A stretch of DNA of 64,000 bases from a virus (IMGVR_UViG_2654588150_000002:418-64417); one strand, 5' to 3'. Shown: positions 940-8,836, counted from the stretch's first letter. Program-made: numbers and translations. The notes: a model not told the origin generated them from the sequence alone.

Positions 940-2351
940 GCGGGGCGCTCCTCGGCGGCGCGCTCGGCGACGCAATCGCACTGTTCCATGTTCGGATGGT
1001 GTCCATCCGCTTCGCTCGTCGGGCCTTCCACGACGTACCAGCCGGAACCGTTGCAGACCGTGCAGCGCGCGGCGTGGCGACGCTCCAGCTCCGCGATAAT
1101 CAGCGCGCCGGCCTTTTCGAGGTTGCGCTCGGGCGTGCTCGGCTTCCACCAGCTCGCTTCCCACGGCCACGTACCCGGCACCATCGAGCGCGGATGATTC
1201 TGGCCTTTCGTCGAGGAGACAGCGTAGGCCGCGCCAGCGAACGCAAGGTCGAACTTCACGAACTGCGCGTCGCGCTCGGGCGAGAAGCCTTCGACCGTGA
1301 TTTGGCGATGCCGCTCGGCGAGGATCGCGCGCACGGCGGGCGAGATGTGCGGCACGAGTGCATGCAACTCGGAGATTTCATGCTTGAGGCGGCGCTTCGA
1401 GGGCTCGCCGTTCTTCGGCAGCTCGACCGTTCGCCATTCGTCCGTACCCGTGAGGGCGCCACGCGCGCGCAGCTCGATCCAACGCAGGCGGCGCGATTGC
1501 TCGCGGCTACGCTGTGCCGTGCGCTCGATATGGCCGAGTGCATCGCGAAGCGGGCGCAACTGGTTGAAGTGTTCGACGGCGATAGCATTCCGGGCCTGAT
1601 CGGACACGTAGGCGCCGTAGACGCGGCTCAACGAGTCGCGGCTGATGCGGACGAGCGGAAAATGCTCAGACATAGAAAGCACGTTGGAGCACTCCATCAC
1701 GGCGCCGCGCAATTCATCTGGCACCTGTGCGGCTTTGCGCTCCTCCTCGCGGTGCGCGCTTACTTCGCGGATGCGCTTGGCGAGCGCGAGGCCGAACCCG
1801 TACCCGAGCGAGGCAACGCCGTTGCGGTACGTTTCGCCCGGCCGATCCATGAATGCGCGGATCGTCGCGACCGTTTCATCGTCGAGCTTCGCCGGCTGTG
1901 CGTGCCGGTCGATGTTGCGCGTACCCTCTGCGACCTTGCGATTGAAGTCATAGATGCGCTCGCGAACGTGCCTCATGCGCTCGCTGAGAACTTCGCGAGC
2001 GTGCGCGTGCTCGTCGGAGTCAACCTCCTCGCCGTCGTCAATCTTCATGTCCAGCTCGGCGAGCACGTTCACGCCGTCGATAAGGCTCTCGGCCGCAGTC
2101 ACGAGGTATCCGCCCCACTCGATAGCGCGCGAGCGCTCCATGCTCACCTGTAGCGAGAGGGCGGACGTTTCCGCGTCCGTTTTCGCGATGCCGTATTGCA
2201 TGGCGGCCACGAGCGCAATCTGCATGCGCGCCACGATTTGCGCCGTGCGCTCTGGCGGGACCATCTGGCAATGGGTGTACAGCTCGCGCGCCGCTTCGAG
2301 CGCGGCGTGATCCATCCACTCGGGCGGCGTGGCGTTTTCCGGCTTATTCAT
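936..2351 (-). CDS. Phage protein with conserved C-terminal AERxRQ...WPW...WWKP...GALIIAELER domain
   Basis: 471 aa ORF with GGAG RBS; C-terminal motif is a widespread phage domain of unknown function. Confidence 0.8.
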   Translation of the reverse strand: MNKPENATPPEWMDHAALEAARELYTHCQMVPPERTAQIVARMQIALVAAMQYGIAKTDAETSALSLQVSMERSRAIEWGGYLVTAAESLIDGVNVLAELDMKIDDGEEVDSDEHAHAREVLSERMRHVRERIYDFNRKVAEGTRNIDRHAQPAKLDDETVATIRAFMDRPGETYRNGVASLGYGFGLALAKRIREVSAHREEERKAAQVPDELRGAVMECSNVLSMSEHFPLVRISRDSLSRVYGAYVSDQARNAIAVEHFNQLRPLRDALGHIERTAQRSREQSRRLRWIELRARGALTGTDEWRTVELPKNGEPSKRRLKHEISELHALVPHISPAVRAILAERHRQITVEGFSPERDAQFVKFDLAFAGAAYAVSSTKGQNHPRSMVPGTWPWEASWWKPSTPERNLEKAGALIIAELERRHAARCTVCNGSGWYVVEGPTSEADGHHPNMEQCDCVAERAAEERPA

Positions 2352-2386
2352 TACTCTCTCCTTGGCATGGTCTTACAAAACAATCA

Positions 2387-2423
2387 TGGTATGATTATCG
2401 AACCACAATAGGCGTGATGTCAA
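2387..2423 (-). promoter_or_regulatory. Leftward sigma70 promoter (TTGACA-18-GATAAT) overlapped by a 20-nt operator variant
   Basis: -35 at 2423-2418, -10 at 2399-2394; TGGTATGATTATCGAAACCA at 2387-2406. Confidence 0.65.
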
Positions 2424-2440
2424 GCCAATGGCGCCGTTGA

Positions 2441-2932
2441 TTACCTTGTTTGCTTCATGATTTTCAGACGGCGCGCTAACTCCTCCTGCGCGAGGTCTGT
2501 CCGCATACCGGCCAGCGCGAGCGCGGGAATATCGCCGAGGAAGTCGCAGACCTCCTCGACGTGCTCGGACAGGGCGCGTATCTCGTCGCCGTTGGCCGTG
2601 TAGATGCCGCGCTCGGTATGCCGCTGCATGATGAGCACGAGCGCGGCCGCTATCTTGTAGACGGCCGGCTGAAACTCGGGATGGTCAAACTCCTGACAGA
2701 ACCGGAGCCCGAGCTGCACGAAGTCATTGAACTGGCAGAGCTGGTCATAGCCGAACGTGCCGGCTTTCAGGGCGCCGATACCGGCCAGGAGTTTGATTTT
2801 CGTCGTGACGATGCTGTCCGCGCTCTCGGCGGGCATCGCGTCAGACATCATGATTGACTTGTGGAGTCGCGGGATAGACCGGGCTTTCGCCCGGTTGCCC
2901 TTTGCTGCTGCCCTACGCTCTGCGCGATTCAT
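2441..2932 (-). CDS. Phage hypothetical protein
   Basis: 163 aa ORF coupled to recT stop (ATGA overlap). Confidence 0.75.
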   Translation of the reverse strand: MNRAERRAAAKGNRAKARSIPRLHKSIMMSDAMPAESADSIVTTKIKLLAGIGALKAGTFGYDQLCQFNDFVQLGLRFCQEFDHPEFQPAVYKIAAALVLIMQRHTERGIYTANGDEIRALSEHVEEVCDFLGDIPALALAGMRTDLAQEELARRLKIMKQTR

Positions 2933-3882
2933 GCTGCTTCACTCTCCCAAGGTACGTCGGGCAGGCCGCCGGCCGCGGCATGGGCCGGTTCCGCCTGCCG
3001 GGCGCGGTTGATGATGCCGGCCATGCGCGAGGGGCGGGCGGCTTCCTGCGCCGGGCGCTCGTCGGTAAGTACGGGCGCGGCGCCGCCGTTCTTCTGCGGA
3101 TCGGCCGGCGGCGGCGCATTGTTCTCTACGGCGGGCGGCGTATCGTCGCGGAAGTTGTAACCCTGCGCTTCGTTGTCGTTCGCAATCACGCGTTCGAGCG
3201 CTTCCGGCGCGTTCGGCATGAGCTTCGCGGCGCGCTTGATAACGGCCTTAATGCCCATTTGGTCGTACCACTTTGTCCACGGGCTGTTCTTGCCGTCGCC
3301 CGTCTTGGACGCGAGGCGCGTCTTTTCGATATCGCGGCGCGGCATTACCTCGCGGTGCTTCGAGCCGTCGCGGAACGTCACGATGACGTAGGCGGCAATC
3401 ACCGGACCGGGCTCGTCCTCGCCGAGGTAGGGCTCGTGCTCGATCGCGGGCGCGTCGCCGCGCCGGAAGTGGAATACGTCCTTGTCGTACACGGCGGCCG
3501 CGTCGATATCGACGATATCCGCCGAGCTGCGCATAATCTTGAGAATGCCGCGCACCATCGGCAGGTATTGCACGGTCGGAACCCACACCTCGACGTTGCG
3601 ATTGCCCTGCTTTTCGGTCTGCTTGGTGTTGTAGACGTTGAACACGGCTTCGCGGCCGTCCGGCAATAGACCATCCTGTGCGGCCTTCATGCACGAGATA
3701 AACAGGCTCTTGCGATCGGCATAGAGCAAATCCTCGTTCACCTGAACGGCCGTCAACGTCGTGCGGATGAAGCGGTCTACGTCGATGCCCGGCGGCAGCG
3801 CGACGGCAACCTGTTCGCGCATACCCTCGATCGACGCTTTGAACGCCTTAAATGGACTGAGCTGTTGCTGTTGGTCTGACAT
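2929..3882 (-). CDS. recT: RecT-family single-strand annealing recombinase
   Basis: KAAQDGLLPDGREA, QYLPMVRGILK and W..WYDQMGIKAVIKR motifs; GGAG RBS before MSDQQQ. Confidence 0.9.
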   Translation of the reverse strand: MSDQQQQLSPFKAFKASIEGMREQVAVALPPGIDVDRFIRTTLTAVQVNEDLLYADRKSLFISCMKAAQDGLLPDGREAVFNVYNTKQTEKQGNRNVEVWVPTVQYLPMVRGILKIMRSSADIVDIDAAAVYDKDVFHFRRGDAPAIEHEPYLGEDEPGPVIAAYVIVTFRDGSKHREVMPRRDIEKTRLASKTGDGKNSPWTKWYDQMGIKAVIKRAAKLMPNAPEALERVIANDNEAQGYNFRDDTPPAVENNAPPPADPQKNGGAAPVLTDERPAQEAARPSRMAGIINRARQAEPAHAAAGGLPDVPWESEAA

Positions 3883-3935
3883 GGTGTGCTCCTGTGTGGC
3901 GCCGCATCGCATGGTATGGTGCGGCGCCGTGCGTT

Positions 3936-4964
3936 TTAGGCGGCCTTCTTTTCGGTGATGCGCACGTTGCGGTAGGGCGGCACCGTCGCCTCGATCGACG
4001 CGGCCGGCACCTTGGTAATCGTGATCGTCACGCGCTCGCCGGCCTCGCGGTTGTACGCGCGAATCGACTCCTTGTTCGTGCCCGCGCTGATGCTGAAACC
4101 GGCCGCCTTCACCGTCTTGGCGGCTTCGATGATGGTCAGCAGCTCGGCGCGCGCGCCGGCCTTACGAGCCTCTGCGGCCTTCACGGCGACGCCGGCTGCC
4201 GTGTATTCCTTGCACAGCTCGTAGACGCGCGGGTTGCTCGTGAGGTCGAGCGCGCTTCCATCGTTCTCCAGGTGGAGCTTGCTGATAGTCTTGGCGTCCT
4301 CGACGTAGTGCGGTTCCGGCGACACGCCCGCGTCGATGCGATCCCAAAAGCGCTGTACGCGCGTGCGGATCATTTCGCCAATTTCGAGGTCGCGCTCACG
4401 GATCAGCGGCTTCGGCGTGTTGCCGCCGACGAGCGGCGCGATAAGCGACCAGTTCATGTCGGCGACTTCGAGCTGGTGCTGCACCTGAATCTCAATGTGC
4501 GGCGGCGCCTCGATTTGCTCGCCATCTTCGAGCCACGTTCGGCGGAATACAAGGCCGTCAACGTTCTTGATTTCCATGATGCCGGGGCCGTGCTTGTCGA
4601 ACATTTCGCGCGCTGCGTTGCGCTCGAAGCCCGGTACGAGCCCGACGATTTTGAAGTCGAACGACGAGCCCATGCGGATTTCCGCGATGCGACCATAGAC
4701 TTTGAACGGCTCGACGATCAGGCCCATGTCCTCTGCGATGCCGGCCGCAATCGCGGCTTCGAGGCGGCGGCCCCACTTCACGCGCTCGTTATCTTTGAAG
4801 TCGCTCGGTAGGCGGCCGGTTTTGACCTGATGCAGTGCGAACTCGGTGAAATACGGCGACGAGTCGAACAGCGCGGCCGCTTCCGTCGAGGTCAAGTCTT
4901 TCTCGCGCATCGCGAGCCATTGTGCTTCGGTTTCAAACGTGAGGGTTTGGCGGGTCAGTTCCAT
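3936..4964 (-). CDS. YqaJ/RecE-like viral recombination exonuclease
   Basis: W..R..DLTSTEAAA, WGRRLE, SFD, EIKN, QVQHQL motifs; adjacent to recT. Confidence 0.88.
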   Translation of the reverse strand: MELTRQTLTFETEAQWLAMREKDLTSTEAAALFDSSPYFTEFALHQVKTGRLPSDFKDNERVKWGRRLEAAIAAGIAEDMGLIVEPFKVYGRIAEIRMGSSFDFKIVGLVPGFERNAAREMFDKHGPGIMEIKNVDGLVFRRTWLEDGEQIEAPPHIEIQVQHQLEVADMNWSLIAPLVGGNTPKPLIRERDLEIGEMIRTRVQRFWDRIDAGVSPEPHYVEDAKTISKLHLENDGSALDLTSNPRVYELCKEYTAAGVAVKAAEARKAGARAELLTIIEAAKTVKAAGFSISAGTNKESIRAYNREAGERVTITITKVPAASIEATVPPYRNVRITEKKAA

Positions 4965-5004
4965 CGTTCTCTCCATTGGCATGTTTTGGTGCGGAATGGT
5001 GCTA

Positions 5005-5080
5005 AAGATAATTCCGCGAATCGCATCCGTCAATAGACGCGCGATTACATTGTGCTGCCAATGGTTCGATTTCGCAACCA
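5005..5080 (-). promoter_or_regulatory. pL-like promoter (TTGACG-17-TATCTT) with upstream 19-bp operator
   Basis: -35 at 5033-5028, -10 at 5010-5005; operator TGGTTCGATTTCGCAACCA at 5062-5080. Confidence 0.65.
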
Positions 5081-5090
5081 GAATTTGAGG

Positions 5091-5672
5091 CTAGAACCGC
5101 GCAAACATCAGAGGAGAAGCCCAATCTAGTTGCACATTGTTCGCTGTGTGGGGGCCGGATAGGTTGTAGGTTCCTTCCGTATAGCCCCGCTTGACCGCCG
5201 CGACCACTATCGAACCACCTACCACGCTCGCTATACAGAAGCGTCCTATTGCGTCCGGCGCGACGGTATCGCGCGGCACGTAGAAGCAAACCCACGCGTC
5301 CATCCACGATAGAGGAGTGTCCGCTGTTCGGAACTGGATCGCGGCCGCGTTCTCAGGCAGGGCTAACGGCGAATCTGTTCGATCATATCCGCCGGTAGTC
5401 ACAGTCCCATCGCCGCCCACAAACCCTGTAACCGTCACCCGCTTGCCCGCCGCCGGTCTGGAATCAATACCGGCCGCTAGCGCGATGTCATGCAAAGGCA
5501 CACCAAAAACGTCTGATAGGGCGGCCGCCTCGTCTAACTGCATACGCCTCTGCCCGCTCAGTGTGAGCGAGAGCTGAGAGTGATTCATTTCCATTCTCTT
5601 GGCTAGGCCGCGCATGGATAACTTCCGCGCGGCCATTAGATCAAGGAAATATTGCTTGTTGACGGTTGACAT
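5091..5672 (-). CDS. Immunity repressor (Xre HTH plus degenerate S24-like C-domain)
   Basis: N-terminal HTH (SMRGLAKRMEMNHSQLSLTLSGQR), C-terminal VKR; divergent from a small HTH gene. Confidence 0.8.
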   Translation of the reverse strand: MSTVNKQYFLDLMAARKLSMRGLAKRMEMNHSQLSLTLSGQRRMQLDEAAALSDVFGVPLHDIALAAGIDSRPAAGKRVTVTGFVGGDGTVTTGGYDRTDSPLALPENAAAIQFRTADTPLSWMDAWVCFYVPRDTVAPDAIGRFCIASVVGGSIVVAAVKRGYTEGTYNLSGPHTANNVQLDWASPLMFARF

Positions 5673-5731
5673 GGCTGACCTCCCCTATTTATCTATTGAC
5701 CGGATTCTATGGCATACGTAAGGCAACGAGG

Positions 5732-5760
5732 TTGACATGATGGTTCGATAAGCGCACCAT
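5732..5760 (+). promoter_or_regulatory. pR-like promoter overlapped by 19-bp operator
   Basis: TTGACA 5732-5737, 17-nt spacer, weak -10 CACCAT; operator TGGTTCGATAAGCGCACCA 5741-5759. Confidence 0.65.
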
Positions 5761-5799
5761 GTCGATACCGAAACTATCGACTTATGTGGGGTAACGAAC

Positions 5800-6153
5800 A
5801 TGACTGTGCGTATCGAGTCGGAAATTACGCCCGACGTGGCCCGCCAACTGCGCAGCAATGCCGGTCTGACGCAGCGCGAATTTTGGGGCAGCGTGGGCAG
5901 CAATCAGGCATCGGGCCATTGGTTCGAGATGGGTAAGCGCAAGGCCATCCCGAAGCCGATCCGCATTTTGATTTTCCTGCGCTACGTCGCGAAGTTCGAA
6001 ATTGCGGCGGATGAGCCGAACAAGGCCGATGCGCTCGTGCGTATCGGCAATGAAATCTCGGCGAAGATGGAAGCGCAGCGCGCCGAGGAAGCGGCGAAGG
6101 AAGCGACGGCCAAGGCGAAAGAGGCCGCGCGCCGCGTTCGCCAAATGGCCTAG
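5800..6153 (+). CDS. Cro-like HTH regulator
   Basis: LRSNAGLTQREFWGSVGSNQASGHWFEMG HTH; divergent from the repressor. Confidence 0.8.
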   Translation: MTVRIESEITPDVARQLRSNAGLTQREFWGSVGSNQASGHWFEMGKRKAIPKPIRILIFLRYVAKFEIAADEPNKADALVRIGNEISAKMEAQRAEEAAKEATAKAKEAARRVRQMA

Positions 6154-6193
6154 TAGCAATCATTTAACGTAGTCACATTAAGGAGAGTGAATC

Positions 6194-6580
6194 ATGGCAG
6201 GCCCGAAACCGTTTAACGACACGCTGGTCCAGCTTCGCTTTGGCGAGCTGCACGACGAATTGACCGAGGCCATGAATGAAATGGTCAAGAAGGTCGACGC
6301 CTCGCAGAAGTCCGGCAAGATCGTGCTCACGCTGGCATTCAAGGCAGGGAAGGGCGGACAGCTTGAAATCGCCGACGACCTCAAGATCACGTTGCCGAAG
6401 ATCGAAAAGGCCACGTCGATCCTGTTTGCGACGCCGGAAGGCAACCTGCAACGCCAAGACCCGCGCCAAAAGACGTTCGAGGGTATCCGCAGCGTGGATC
6501 AGGAAGCCGAAGCGATGCGCGCAGTTCGCACGGGCACCGATGACGCAGCGCCGGCACCGCTCGCAGTTCGCGGCGCGTAA
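6194..6580 (+). CDS. Conserved phage protein (usual upstream partner of DUF2303)
   Basis: KSGKIVLTL...FATPEGNLQRQDPRQ motif; AGGAG RBS. Confidence 0.8.
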   Translation: MAGPKPFNDTLVQLRFGELHDELTEAMNEMVKKVDASQKSGKIVLTLAFKAGKGGQLEIADDLKITLPKIEKATSILFATPEGNLQRQDPRQKTFEGIRSVDQEAEAMRAVRTGTDDAAPAPLAVRGA

Positions 6581-6610
6581 TAGCACCGCACCATACCGCA
6601 CCATCCCATC

Positions 6611-7462
6611 ATGACGTACACCTATACGGAAGCTGAAAAAATGGAAAACCTGAATTTCAAAGAAGCAATGGACGCTGGCGCAGCAATGGTCGAAATCAAG
6701 GAAGTGCTCGGCGTGCCCGTGGCAGTCGTGCCGGACGGCTACGACCTGAAAACGCTCGAACACCTGTTGAGCCGTGAGCGCCCGACGCGCGCGAAGGGCA
6801 CGCACAAGATTCTCGACGCGGAAAGCTTCATCCGCTTTGTGTCGCCCTACGCCGAGCAGGGCCACGCGGTTGACCTGTACTACCACATCGAACCGTCGCC
6901 TATCTTCACGGCCGTGCTCAACGCCGCGCGTCCGGGCACGCCGTCGCACGAGGACCATCAAGCGATCTACGCCGCGCCCATGTCGAAGGAATGGGAGACG
7001 TGGACGCAGGCCGATGGCGTCAAGATGGATCAGGTGAAGTTCGCGCAGTTCATCGAGCGCAACCTCCTCGACATCCATTCGCCGACTGGCGCGGAAATGC
7101 TCGAAGTCGCAACGAGCTTCCAGGCGAAGAAGGGTGTCAACTTTGCGAGCGGCACGAAGCTCGCGAACGGTCAGACGCAGCTCGTCTACGAAGAAACGAT
7201 TCAGGCGAAGGCCGGCGAAAAGGGCACGCTCAACGTGCCGGACGAAATCACCATCGTGATTCCCGTGTTCGACGGCTCGACGGTCGGCGACAAGATCACG
7301 GCGAAGTTCCGCTACCAGATCGACGGCGGCCGCCTGTTCATGTGGTTCGAGCTGGTGCGTGCGCACAAGGTTCTCGAACTGGCAACGGGCGACTTGCTGA
7401 CGAAGATTCAAGAGGGCACGAAGCTCGTCGCGTACAAGGGCACCGCTCCTAGCGCCCGCTAA
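6611..7462 (+). CDS. DUF2303 (YfdQ-like) protein
   Basis: SKEW..W, Q.KFAQFIERN and VPDEITIVIPVF motifs; start may be 6641. Confidence 0.85.
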   Translation: MTYTYTEAEKMENLNFKEAMDAGAAMVEIKEVLGVPVAVVPDGYDLKTLEHLLSRERPTRAKGTHKILDAESFIRFVSPYAEQGHAVDLYYHIEPSPIFTAVLNAARPGTPSHEDHQAIYAAPMSKEWETWTQADGVKMDQVKFAQFIERNLLDIHSPTGAEMLEVATSFQAKKGVNFASGTKLANGQTQLVYEETIQAKAGEKGTLNVPDEITIVIPVFDGSTVGDKITAKFRYQIDGGRLFMWFELVRAHKVLELATGDLLTKIQEGTKLVAYKGTAPSAR

Positions 7463-7649
7463 TCAATAGCACCATACGGCACCATACGATAGCGTGTGGT
7501 GCAAAATCTGCGAGCATTCATCAGGCCGCGCCGGACCTCAGTAACCGGCACCTTTCAGACACAGCTCGATAGACGGCTGACCCGGAGTAGGTTCGCAACC
7601 CTCTGGCCGCACCGAGACAGCGCCCCCTGACGGCGTTCGAGTTGTGCCT

Positions 7650-7820
7650 GAAAGGTTGTGAAGCGAAATCAGTAGCGAACCCGAGCGTGCGCACGCGGAG
7701 GGGAGCGAAACAAAGTAGCTGGCGCAGGCTGCGCAACGAGCTGACTAACTCCCCGTAGGTATCCGGCGACGGGCTCTTTTCAGATCGATGCCGGCGGATC
7801 GTACCCGCCACCTTTCTCCA
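7650..7820 (+). ncRNA. Candidate 171-nt tRNA-like structured RNA
   Basis: Acceptor GAAAGGT/ACCTTTC + T + CCA; T-arm GGCGG-ATCGTAC-CCGCC; nested internal helices; non-coding gap. Confidence 0.55.
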
Positions 7821-7853
7821 ACCACCTGTTAATCCTAGATACGGACAACGACC

Positions 7854-8369
7854 ATGATCCTCACCGGATACTGCCGCATCGGCAATGAGCCCGAACTGCG
7901 CCACACCCAAGGCGACAACTCCACCGCCGTTGTAAATCTCGACCTCGCATTCAACTACGGCCGCCGCGACGACAGCGGCGAACGGCCTACGCAGTGGGTC
8001 CGGGGTTCCCTTTGGGGCCAACGCGCCGAGGCGCTTATCGACTACCTCGTGAAGGGCCAAGGGCTCGACGTGGTTGTCGACGACGTGCATGTCGAGCTGT
8101 ACGACAAGAACAACGGCGAAGTCGGCGCGAACCTGATCGGCCGCATCGTCATGCTGGAGTTCGCTGGCTCGCCGCCGGGCGGCAATCAGCAGCAAGGCAA
8201 CCAGCAGCAGCGCAACGGCAACGGCCGCACGCAGCAGCAAACGCAGGGCAACAACGGCCGCCAGCAGCAACAGCAGCGCGGCAATGGCAACGGCCGCAAC
8301 TCGTACAGCGATGCGAAGAACGGTCGCACGCAGCGCGGCGGCTATGACGATCGGGAGTCGTTCGAATGA
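7854..8369 (+). CDS. ssb: Single-stranded DNA-binding protein
   Basis: GYCRIGNEPELR, TQWVRGSLWGQRAEAL..YLVKG OB fold; Q/G/N-rich tail. Confidence 0.9.
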   Translation: MILTGYCRIGNEPELRHTQGDNSTAVVNLDLAFNYGRRDDSGERPTQWVRGSLWGQRAEALIDYLVKGQGLDVVVDDVHVELYDKNNGEVGANLIGRIVMLEFAGSPPGGNQQQGNQQQRNGNGRTQQQTQGNNGRQQQQQRGNGNGRNSYSDAKNGRTQRGGYDDRESFE

Positions 8370-8836
8370 GCGACGTGCAACCTCTCTTTCACGGCGAGGT
8401 CCAGCTCGCCGCCTGGAGCGAGTCGCACACGGGCGGCGCCAAGATCGTGCTGTGGCTTTCCGATCCCGCTGACCTCGAAGCGTTCCGCGTGATGACCGTT
8501 CGCAAGGGCAACGTCGCCGGGCAGCGCATGGCGTGCGCGCTAGTTGAAATCGGCGATGACGAACAGCCGGTTCAGCCCGTGCAGCAGGCCGCCGAGAACC
8601 CGAAGGGCGGCCCGCTGGCGAAGCTCGCCGGTATGTGGTGCGACAACCCGAAGTTTTGGGAGTGGATTCGCTCCAAGGGCGCGCGCTGCACTGGCCACGA
8701 GGAGGCGGCGCAGATCATCCGCAAAACGTGCAAGATCGGCAGTCGCGCCGAGCTGGACAGCAATCGCGAGGCCGCGAGCGTGTTCAATGAAATGTTTCGC
8801 AAGCCGTTCGGTTACTGGATGAGCGGCGCGCAATGA
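8366..8836 (+). CDS. Phage hypothetical protein
   Basis: Coupled ORF; C-terminal C.I.SRAELD motif common in phage proteins. Confidence 0.75.
   Translation: MSDVQPLFHGEVQLAAWSESHTGGAKIVLWLSDPADLEAFRVMTVRKGNVAGQRMACALVEIGDDEQPVQPVQQAAENPKGGPLAKLAGMWCDNPKFWEWIRSKGARCTGHEEAAQIIRKTCKIGSRAELDSNREAASVFNEMFRKPFGYWMSGAQ

Follow-up and report, generated by a model that had tools for sequence, protein, structure and literature searches.

A rare, covarying family of predicted structured RNAs in phages and prophages, represented by an element upstream of ssb in a Bcep22-like provirus

The DNA analyzed here, a stretch of 64,000 nucleotides (IMGVR_UViG_2654588150_000002:418-64417; hereafter, the window), is a Bcep22-like (Lessievirus-related) provirus. 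In its early region, a repressor-like gene on the minus strand (5091-5672) is followed by plus-strand early genes through ssb. The element described in this work (7650-7820, plus strand) is located in the 391-nt gap between an ORF of the DUF2303 type (6611-7462, plus strand) and ssb (7854-8369, plus strand), and it is situated 37 nt before the start of ssb. Neither promoter-like nor terminator-like sites were found between positions 7300 and 8000; from the orientation of the repressor-like gene and of the plus-strand early genes, we infer that the element is read with the early rightward transcript. A search of sequencing runs with window positions 6900-8400 yielded no RNA run, and the four metagenome runs compared were DNA contigs. 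Within the same gap, closer to the DUF2303-type ORF, GCACCATACG occurs twice in tandem (7468-7500) and is followed by an inverted GGTGC. In relatives of the Bcep22 type, a tRNA-Ser separates the cro-like gene from the gene that follows it, whereas in the window (5800-6600) this gap is only about 40 nt long and lacks a tRNA. The text available from the JC1 paper, which contains nothing on the DUF2303-ssb gap, records one tRNA-Ser per Bcep22-like phage (PMC9144972). A previous sequence-only reading of the window had noted no ordinary tRNA in it, and neither ARAGORN nor Rfam detects one, the tRNA-Ser being found elsewhere in the relatives.

That reading described the element as a tRNA-like RNA with a 7-bp acceptor, a discriminator T, an encoded CCA and a T-stem hairpin of 5 bp with a 7-nt loop, and direct inspection confirms all of these letters. 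GAAAGGT (7650-7656) pairs at every position with ACCTTTC (7810-7816); the latter is abutted by the hairpin GGCGG-ATCGTAC-CCGCC (7793-7809) and is directly followed by T (7817) and CCA (7818-7820). On its own, this combination of helix and hairpin does not exceed chance expectation. The window contains 6 perfect 7-bp helices that span 50-250 nt and are abutted on the 3' strand by a perfect hairpin of 5 bp with a 7-nt loop, and 200 dinucleotide shuffles contain 7.4 on average; if N-CCA is required as well, the window has one such pattern compared to a mean of 0.07, and 14 of the 200 shuffles contain it at least once. The minimum free energy of the element (-57.6 kcal/mol) is likewise within the range of its shuffles (-59.3 ± 4.2 kcal/mol; z = +0.41), 128 of 200 of which fold as well or better. 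The end helices are judged to be real on the basis of the comparison with homologs described below, where compensatory changes keep them paired.

Searches for known RNA families were negative. ARAGORN with default settings calls no tRNA or tmRNA in the 64-kb window. Under relaxed settings (80% score, introns allowed) it reports a "tRNA-SeC with a 99-nt intron" at exactly 7650-7820, but this call carries no weight because the same setting yields 329 calls in the window. No Rfam 15 family, the comparison that would have removed the novelty of the element, matches the window or 10 loci at the gathering scores. At E-values up to 10, nothing overlaps the element within the interval 7400-7900, where the single match (14 bits, 7443-7465) appears to be due to chance, and at E-values up to 5 no match overlaps the element in three homologous loci. 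Thus, neither ARAGORN nor the Rfam tRNA model reports the element at a usable threshold.

A blastn search of 50,697 phage records with three copies of the element as queries identified only Xanthomonas phage Rb1 (L001), in which the homologous sequence lies in an unannotated gap. The window and Rb1 share two near-repeats, GCGAAA-TC-AGTAG and GCGAAA-CAA-AGTAG, both of which were used as queries for exact-pattern scans. The motif scan of IMG/VR identified two contigs (L003 and L004), which were also the only ones returned by a loosened motif scan of viral contigs; the scan of genome contigs identified Caballeronia (L009), Paraburkholderia (L010) and a metagenome-assembled genome labelled Acidobacteriota (L011); and the scan with the second motif added one more metagenome contig (L012), along with L013, which is identical to L004. 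The homologs therefore comprise seven loci besides the window: the Caballeronia and Paraburkholderia prophages, the metagenome-assembled genome, Rb1, the two IMG/VR contigs and the metagenome contig. In L011, the 5' two-thirds of the element are retained and the 3' end is divergent. The covariance model was built from the 7 full copies. This model scores the 8 loci at 103-191 bits and everything else in 141 kb of these loci at 14 bits or less, and each of the five genomes or records searched contains one strong copy. Applied to 150 family-level and 151 genus-level genomes (18 candidates scored per genome under strict filters, with one genome unscored), it detected no further strong match. Three hits of 20-23 bits lack the conserved motifs and were taken for chance matches; G162 gave a hit of 23.8 bits. 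Among 72,556 plasmid records, there was no match to the element. Given that searches of phage, plasmid, viral-contig and genome sequences yielded so few loci, the family is rare.

The alignment of the homologs supports a common secondary structure. RNAalifold applied to a MAFFT alignment of four sequences predicts 42 pairs, 20 of which show compensatory changes, and, independently of the model fit, recovers the same three helices, P1, P4 and P5. The alignment of 8 sequences was fitted to the covariance model, a procedure that favors the specified structure. In it, standard pairs occupy 91.6% of 262 cells, a share that falls to 29.9-41.9% if partners are displaced by 1-3 columns, and 19 of the 33 pairs have changed on both sides. 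By helix, such double changes affect 7 of 7 pairs in P1, 6 of 10 in P4 and 4 of 5 in P5, and none of 500 shuffles reaches any of the five observed covariation measures. In the seven other aligned sequences, P1 is paired in 45 of 49 cells and the stem of P5 in 35 of 35. The acceptor-like and T-like stems originally noted are thus real helices, and the covariation among homologs that had been suggested as a check on them is indeed present. The supported helices contain about 7 types of G-U pairs compared to about 3 A-C mismatches. The orientation of the element coincides with that of ssb in the window, L009 and L011, with that of the tRNA and tmRNA in Rb1, and with that of a tRNA-Glu and a downstream terminator-like hairpin in L004. 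At the level of sequence comparison, the structure is conserved, covarying and strand-specific.

Other helices proposed from the single sequence fare differently. The mini D-arm (TGA/TCA) is paired in just 12 of 21 cells in the seven other sequences. Among the five nested helices that were thought to replace the anticodon arm, GCGTG/CACGC is retained as the inner part of P3 (31 of 35 cells), whereas CCCG/CGGG (10 of 28), GGGGAG/CTCCCC (18 of 42) and AGCT/AGCT (12 of 28) are lost. The fifth, GCGCAG/CTGCGC, was rejected even though it is paired in 37 of 42 cells: the pairing mostly involves unchanging letters, is broken by changes in L012 and Rb1, leaves a loop of 1 nt and overlaps the base of the covarying P4. 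The fold predicted for the family is a multi-helix junction that consists of P1, a 5' domain in which most letters agree among all copies and a twice-repeated motif surrounds P3, the long arm P4, and P5 stacked on P1. By the evidence of the alignments, the family is one of structured RNAs of phages and prophages, about 165-185 nt long, and the covariation supports the earlier view of the element as a discrete structured non-coding RNA.

All parts of the element are on the plus strand. The closing helix P1 (5' strand, 7650-7656; 3' strand, 7810-7816) is evident from both direct reading and covariation; its letters differ between most copies, and the 5' strand is common to the window and L009 only. 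The strand that joins P1 to the 5' domain (7657-7662) includes T8 and A12 of the element, which are invariant in 7 sequences; the proposed mini D-arm would draw on the bases of this strand. It is followed by the first motif copy, GCGAAA-TC-AGTAG-Y (7663-7676), the P3 hairpin (7680-7702), and the second motif copy, GCGAAA-CAA-AGTAG-Y (7705-7719). Both motif copies are identical in 8 of 8 loci except for the last base, and P3 is a hairpin in every copy, with other letters in L004 and Rb1. The strand leading from the second motif to P4 (7720-7732) contains invariant GG, A and GCTG. The 5' strand of P4 (7733-7743) consists of the GCA.C base and six variable pairs and pairs with 7781-7791, the 3' strand, which ends with invariant GATGC; P4 is recognized from these invariant columns together with covariation. 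The six variable pairs differ in most copies, and the distal arm of P4 (7744-7780) is variable and swappable between copies: the version of the tip in the window is almost identical to that of L010, another is common to L003 and L004, and L009, L012, Rb1 and L011 each have a separate one. The P5 hairpin (7793-7809; the putative T-arm of the earlier reading), paired in 100% of cells, abuts the 3' strand of P1, after which the T and CCA tail (7817-7820) is not a feature of the family.

Altogether, 60 columns are invariant in the 7 full copies; besides both motif copies and the strand after the second motif, they include the base of P4 (GCAAC/GATGC) and most positions of the P5 loop. With only 8 loci, several of which share long identical stretches, part of this invariant core may reflect recent horizontal spread instead of selection. 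The repeated motif is compatible with three pairings, namely a separate hairpin for each copy, the two copies facing each other, or GTAGY of either copy paired with GCTGY, and the lack of variation in the motif copies gives no basis for a choice among them. The sequences G-A-A and A-G-U-A are the two strands of motifs of the loop-E/sarcin-ricin type, and each motif copy contains both. If the copies face each other, P3 could cap the resulting symmetric internal loop, and G-A/A-G juxtapositions would adjoin P3 in most members of the family.

The comparison among copies separates two components of the tRNA resemblance. In all of the 7 full copies, P5 leads into P1 without a spacer; its dimensions are those of a T-arm in 6 of them, the exception being L012 with an extra bulged base. 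In the 7 full copies, the P5 loop is A-U-C-R-U-M-C, closed by a G-C pair. The consensus T-loop has U at position 1 and A at position 5; in the element, U-C-R at positions 2-4 is retained, and positions 1 and 5 are swapped relative to this consensus in all copies. The length of P1 varies widely, from 7 bp in the window and 7 bp with one mismatch in L003 to 8 in L009, 10 in L004, 14 in L010 and about 16 in L012, with 6 + 9 in Rb1. N-CCA after the 7-bp register is present in 1 of the 7 full copies, that of the window, the nearest copy (L009) having TCCC. By this comparison, the stacked P1/P5 end is a trait of the family, and the 7-bp limit and CCA are accidents of the window copy. L004, L012 and Rb1, which otherwise differ, resemble one another in the outer part of the long P1 (5' strand, CCAT.AT; 3' strand, AT.ATGG), and this shared part could be a processing or binding site.

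Close relatives of the window phage lack the element, which behaves as a self-contained cassette. L008 is 98% identical to the window over the DUF2303 C-terminus and lacks about 260 nt, including the element, such that the hairpin at about 7531-7550 is joined to the ssb leader. A 1286-nt contig from a soil run similarly passes from about 7550 to about 7853 via 32 other letters, with the element absent. In the window, two directly repeated copies of CACCTTTC (7549-7556 and 7809-7816), each preceded by a hairpin, delimit this segment of about 260 nt; the upstream copy (plus strand) follows the hairpin at 7531-7548 and forms the left edge of the indel. GAAAGGT at 7650 is able to pair with either copy of CACCTTTC. 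The same indel encompasses a second self-closed RNA-like cassette, module A (7560-7646, plus strand), recognized by its own helices and by a homolog in L011. Module A is closed by a helix of 10 bp and contains a central arm as well as a 5-bp/7-nt hairpin that abuts the 3' strand; in the L011 homolog (5461-5547, minus strand), the closing helix and hairpin are retained with changed letters. No homologs of module A were detected in viral contigs. In the relatives L005-L007, the DUF2303-ssb gap contains other, different modules. Just upstream of ssb, L005-L007, L009 and L011 have GCACCAT...ATGGTGC palindromes, which are related to the repeat at 7468-7500 in the window and look like an operator or another protein-binding site.

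The transcription units in which the element sits produce stable RNAs or early messages. In Rb1, it is part of a tRNA/tmRNA operon within a 2.6-kb unannotated stretch (2200-4835), which apparently also includes a thioredoxin-like ORF region. A tRNA match (2747-2826, 42.5 bits, missed by ARAGORN) precedes the element; a permuted two-piece tmRNA (3160-3465, 103 bits) begins 6 nt past it, with the extended P1 overlapping its first bases; and a tRNA-Phe (3628-3703) follows the tmRNA. Where the Rb1 copy overlaps the beta_tmRNA model, the overlap involves the unpaired 5' flank of the model, with low posterior probability and below the gathering score, and it was dismissed. L004 has a tRNA-Glu on the strand of the element, about 470 nt upstream of it, and neighboring genes there encode RelA/SpoT-like, HD and pyrophosphatase-like proteins. 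The L010 copy belongs to the early region of a prophage, in which an S24 repressor and an Arc-like protein are encoded, and it is flanked on both sides by hairpin-containing direct repeats. In L012, the element is located between guaA and a retron-type reverse transcriptase (1579-2337, plus strand; best PADLOC match RT_IX, E = 8.5e-15), which is encoded on the opposite strand; the reverse transcriptase converges on the element, and its proximity was taken to be coincidental. The presence of guaA and a tRNA nearby suggests a genomic island. In L003, about 1.5 kb of self-closed modules (4400-5900, minus strand) end with a terminator-like hairpin. No recurring partner protein is encoded in the neighborhoods of the loci, and a search of the window for an antisense target found a longest complementarity of 12 nt (3 hits compared to about 1.2 expected).

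The interpretation that we favor, and consider probable, is that these elements are a new family of stable, probably trans-acting phage RNAs, the invariant core of which binds a host factor. Most of the weight of this composite view lies in the claim that this is a real RNA family distinct from tRNA; the binding mechanism taken on its own is tentative and rather less likely than not, given the lack of a recurring partner protein and of a target longer than 12 nt, and the unvarying motif copies. Under the proposed scenario, the element would be transcribed within the early rightward operon, and the closed P1/P5 end would insulate the fold, release or stabilize the RNA, and perhaps guide its excision from long precursors. 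The RNA would then act in trans, with the invariant 5' domain, in which the two motif copies could form a loop-E-like internal loop, providing a surface for a conserved host protein or RNA, and the variable P4 tip either tuning specificity or being neutral. The stacked P1/P5 end resembles a minihelix of acceptor and T-arm, and in this family it would be a closing and stabilizing module as opposed to an aminoacylatable end.

The alternative closest to the original description is that the element is a true tRNA mimic, cut by RNase P at 7650 and exposing its CCA as a decoy or a substrate of tRNA enzymes. The window copy, with exactly 7 bp in P1 followed by T and CCA, matches this view, as do the T-arm size of P5 in 6 of 7 copies, its G-C closing pair, U-C-R at loop positions 2-4 and the direct junction with P1 in all 7; furthermore, module A is built on the same design, family members adjoin tRNA or tmRNA genes, and the RNase P maturation of the C4 RNA of phage P1 and the CI RNA of phage P4 provides a precedent. 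Nevertheless, a single copy of 7 has N-CCA, and P1 runs on unbroken in L004 (10 bp), L010 (14 bp) and L012 (about 16 bp). The D-arm pairs in 12 of 21 cells and an anticodon arm is absent; at loop positions 1 and 5, every copy has A and U in place of U and A; no tRNA, tmRNA or C4 model matches, and the relaxed ARAGORN call is 1 of 329. We therefore consider a tRNA mimic unlikely, and the reading of the element as an enlarged tRNA is not supported, because N-CCA, the 7-bp limit of the acceptor, the D-arm and the supposed replacement of the anticodon arm are not upheld by the homologs.

The element resembles tRNA and the tRNA-like domain of tmRNA in that the closing helix leads straight into a 5-bp/7-nt hairpin, as the acceptor stem does into the T-arm. 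Helix P2 of tmRNA enters one base before the T-arm hairpin, and the long P4 of the element likewise enters one base before P5; in Rb1, moreover, the element adjoins a two-piece tmRNA gene. Unlike tRNA and tmRNA, the family has no fixed 7-bp limit, conserved CCA, D-arm, anticodon arm, G3:U70 or tag reading frame. The inference that the element is not a tmRNA is borne out by its third pair, A-T, and by the absence of an ARAGORN or Rfam tmRNA match.

Several other RNA classes share some of these features. The phage P1 C4 and P4 CI RNAs are small RNAs that are excised from longer transcripts by RNase P, and Rfam includes a C4 family. The element resembles them in being a small structured phage RNA, embedded in a transcript of an early or immunity region, whose closed end could direct processing, but it is about twice as long, folds differently, has no Rfam match and has no complementary target nearby. 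The bacterial Y RNA YrlA consists of a long stem formed by the ends and a domain with a T-arm-like hairpin, both of which have counterparts in the element; membership in YrlA involves a conserved protein-binding sequence in the end stem and a Ro/Rsr gene nearby. In the element, the end stem varies between most copies in its inner 7 bp, its outer part is partly shared in 3 copies, and there is no Rfam match. ROOL and GOLLD, as presented in the accessible part of the source, are structured RNAs of phages and prophages that have no known function and are often found near tRNA islands, with GOLLD often exceeding 800 nt (bioRxiv 10.1101/2024.12.08.627333). Judging by that description, the element of about 170 nt shares their tRNA-island context but is far smaller and is not matched by their own Rfam models. 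The viral csRNA catalog, as described in the available text, lists 10,006 candidates with motifs of 29-151 bases (PMC10690425); a covarying intergenic motif in IMG/VR phage contigs is what the element represents as well, and part of it may be listed there. No description of the element was found in the literature. Compared with the csRNA catalog by description alone, and with the other classes as above, the element appears to represent a new, rare and uncataloged family of phage RNAs.

The invariant core lends itself to a different interpretation, namely that the element is a self-cleaving ribozyme or a ligand-binding aptamer that processes or regulates cassette arrays and precursors of stable RNAs. 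An invariant unpaired core combined with freely varying helices is typical of ribozymes and aptamers, and the element contains about 60 invariant, largely unpaired nucleotides around the junction, with helices that vary freely. A cut at the 3' edge of the element would be needed in Rb1 to free the acceptor piece of the tmRNA, and arrays of other self-closed modules are present in L003, L005 and L006. Since no ribozyme or riboswitch of Rfam 15 matches the element and neither an expression platform nor a downstream gene is conserved, we regard this possibility as quite unlikely. A broader conjecture, to which we also assign a low probability, is that the element is the first observed member of a new functional class of RNA, either a small ribozyme that cuts precursors of stable RNAs or cassettes or a protein-binding scaffold with a swappable P4 tip that confers target specificity, and that unrelated phages infecting soil beta- and gamma-proteobacteria acquire it as a self-contained cassette, along with other modules whose closure likewise resembles a tRNA minihelix.

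The location in the window, 37 nt before the ssb start, and the position upstream of ssb in L009 and L011 could point to a cis-acting ssb leader, for example, one involved in SSB autoregulation as in T4 gene 32; the available text of the csRNA study reports candidate structures upstream of gene 32 in phages, which fits this idea (PMC10690425). Yet ssb is downstream in only 3 of the 8 loci, all from one phage lineage; L008 and the soil contig have this ssb but not the element; and tmRNA, other RNA modules or unrelated sequence are found downstream in Rb1, L003, L004, L010 and L012, which makes a leader function very unlikely. Least likely of all is a recombination site or miniature mobile element acting at the DNA level, with inverted repeats that merely look like RNA helices: the indel of about 260 nt bounded by the CACCTTTC direct repeat with a hairpin before each copy and the hairpin-containing direct repeats on both sides in L010 would fit, but the end helices differ in sequence between most copies, which is covariation and not conservation of terminal repeats, the internal helices P4 and P5 likewise covary and show G-U pairs on just one strand, each of five genomes or records has a single copy, and no transposase or integrase adjoins the element.

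Phage genomes encode many structured RNAs of unknown role. For an RNA of this size, the comparative support for the family described here is unusually clear, with three helices maintained by compensatory changes and about 60 fixed letters. The element is present in unrelated phages of Burkholderia-group and Xanthomonas hosts, among which it is gained and lost as a cassette. Should the invariant core prove to be catalytic or to bind a host factor, the element would be a compact new RNA tool and a lead into the use that phages make of the RNAs of tRNA islands.

The DUF2303-ssb gap of Bcep22-like phages holds RNA-like modules, and at least one deposited genome annotates a minus-strand hypothetical protein there, namely BcepMigl gp12 (L022 3513-3794), an annotation across the gap that may be spurious. 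The module arrays in L003 and in L005-L007 (about 3800-4250) often have closing strands such as GAGGGTG/CACCCTC or TGAAGGT/ACCTTCA, with a GCCGG...CCGGC hairpin ahead of the 3' strand; one module is common to L003 and L006, and a hairpin followed by ACCTTCA occurs in L003, L005-L007 and L009. Downstream of the element in L004 (about 3130-3200, minus strand), there is a stem with a 7-nt loop and a central TCA that has the shape of an anticodon arm, with no ARAGORN call, and it is followed by more hairpins and then by the terminator-like hairpin.
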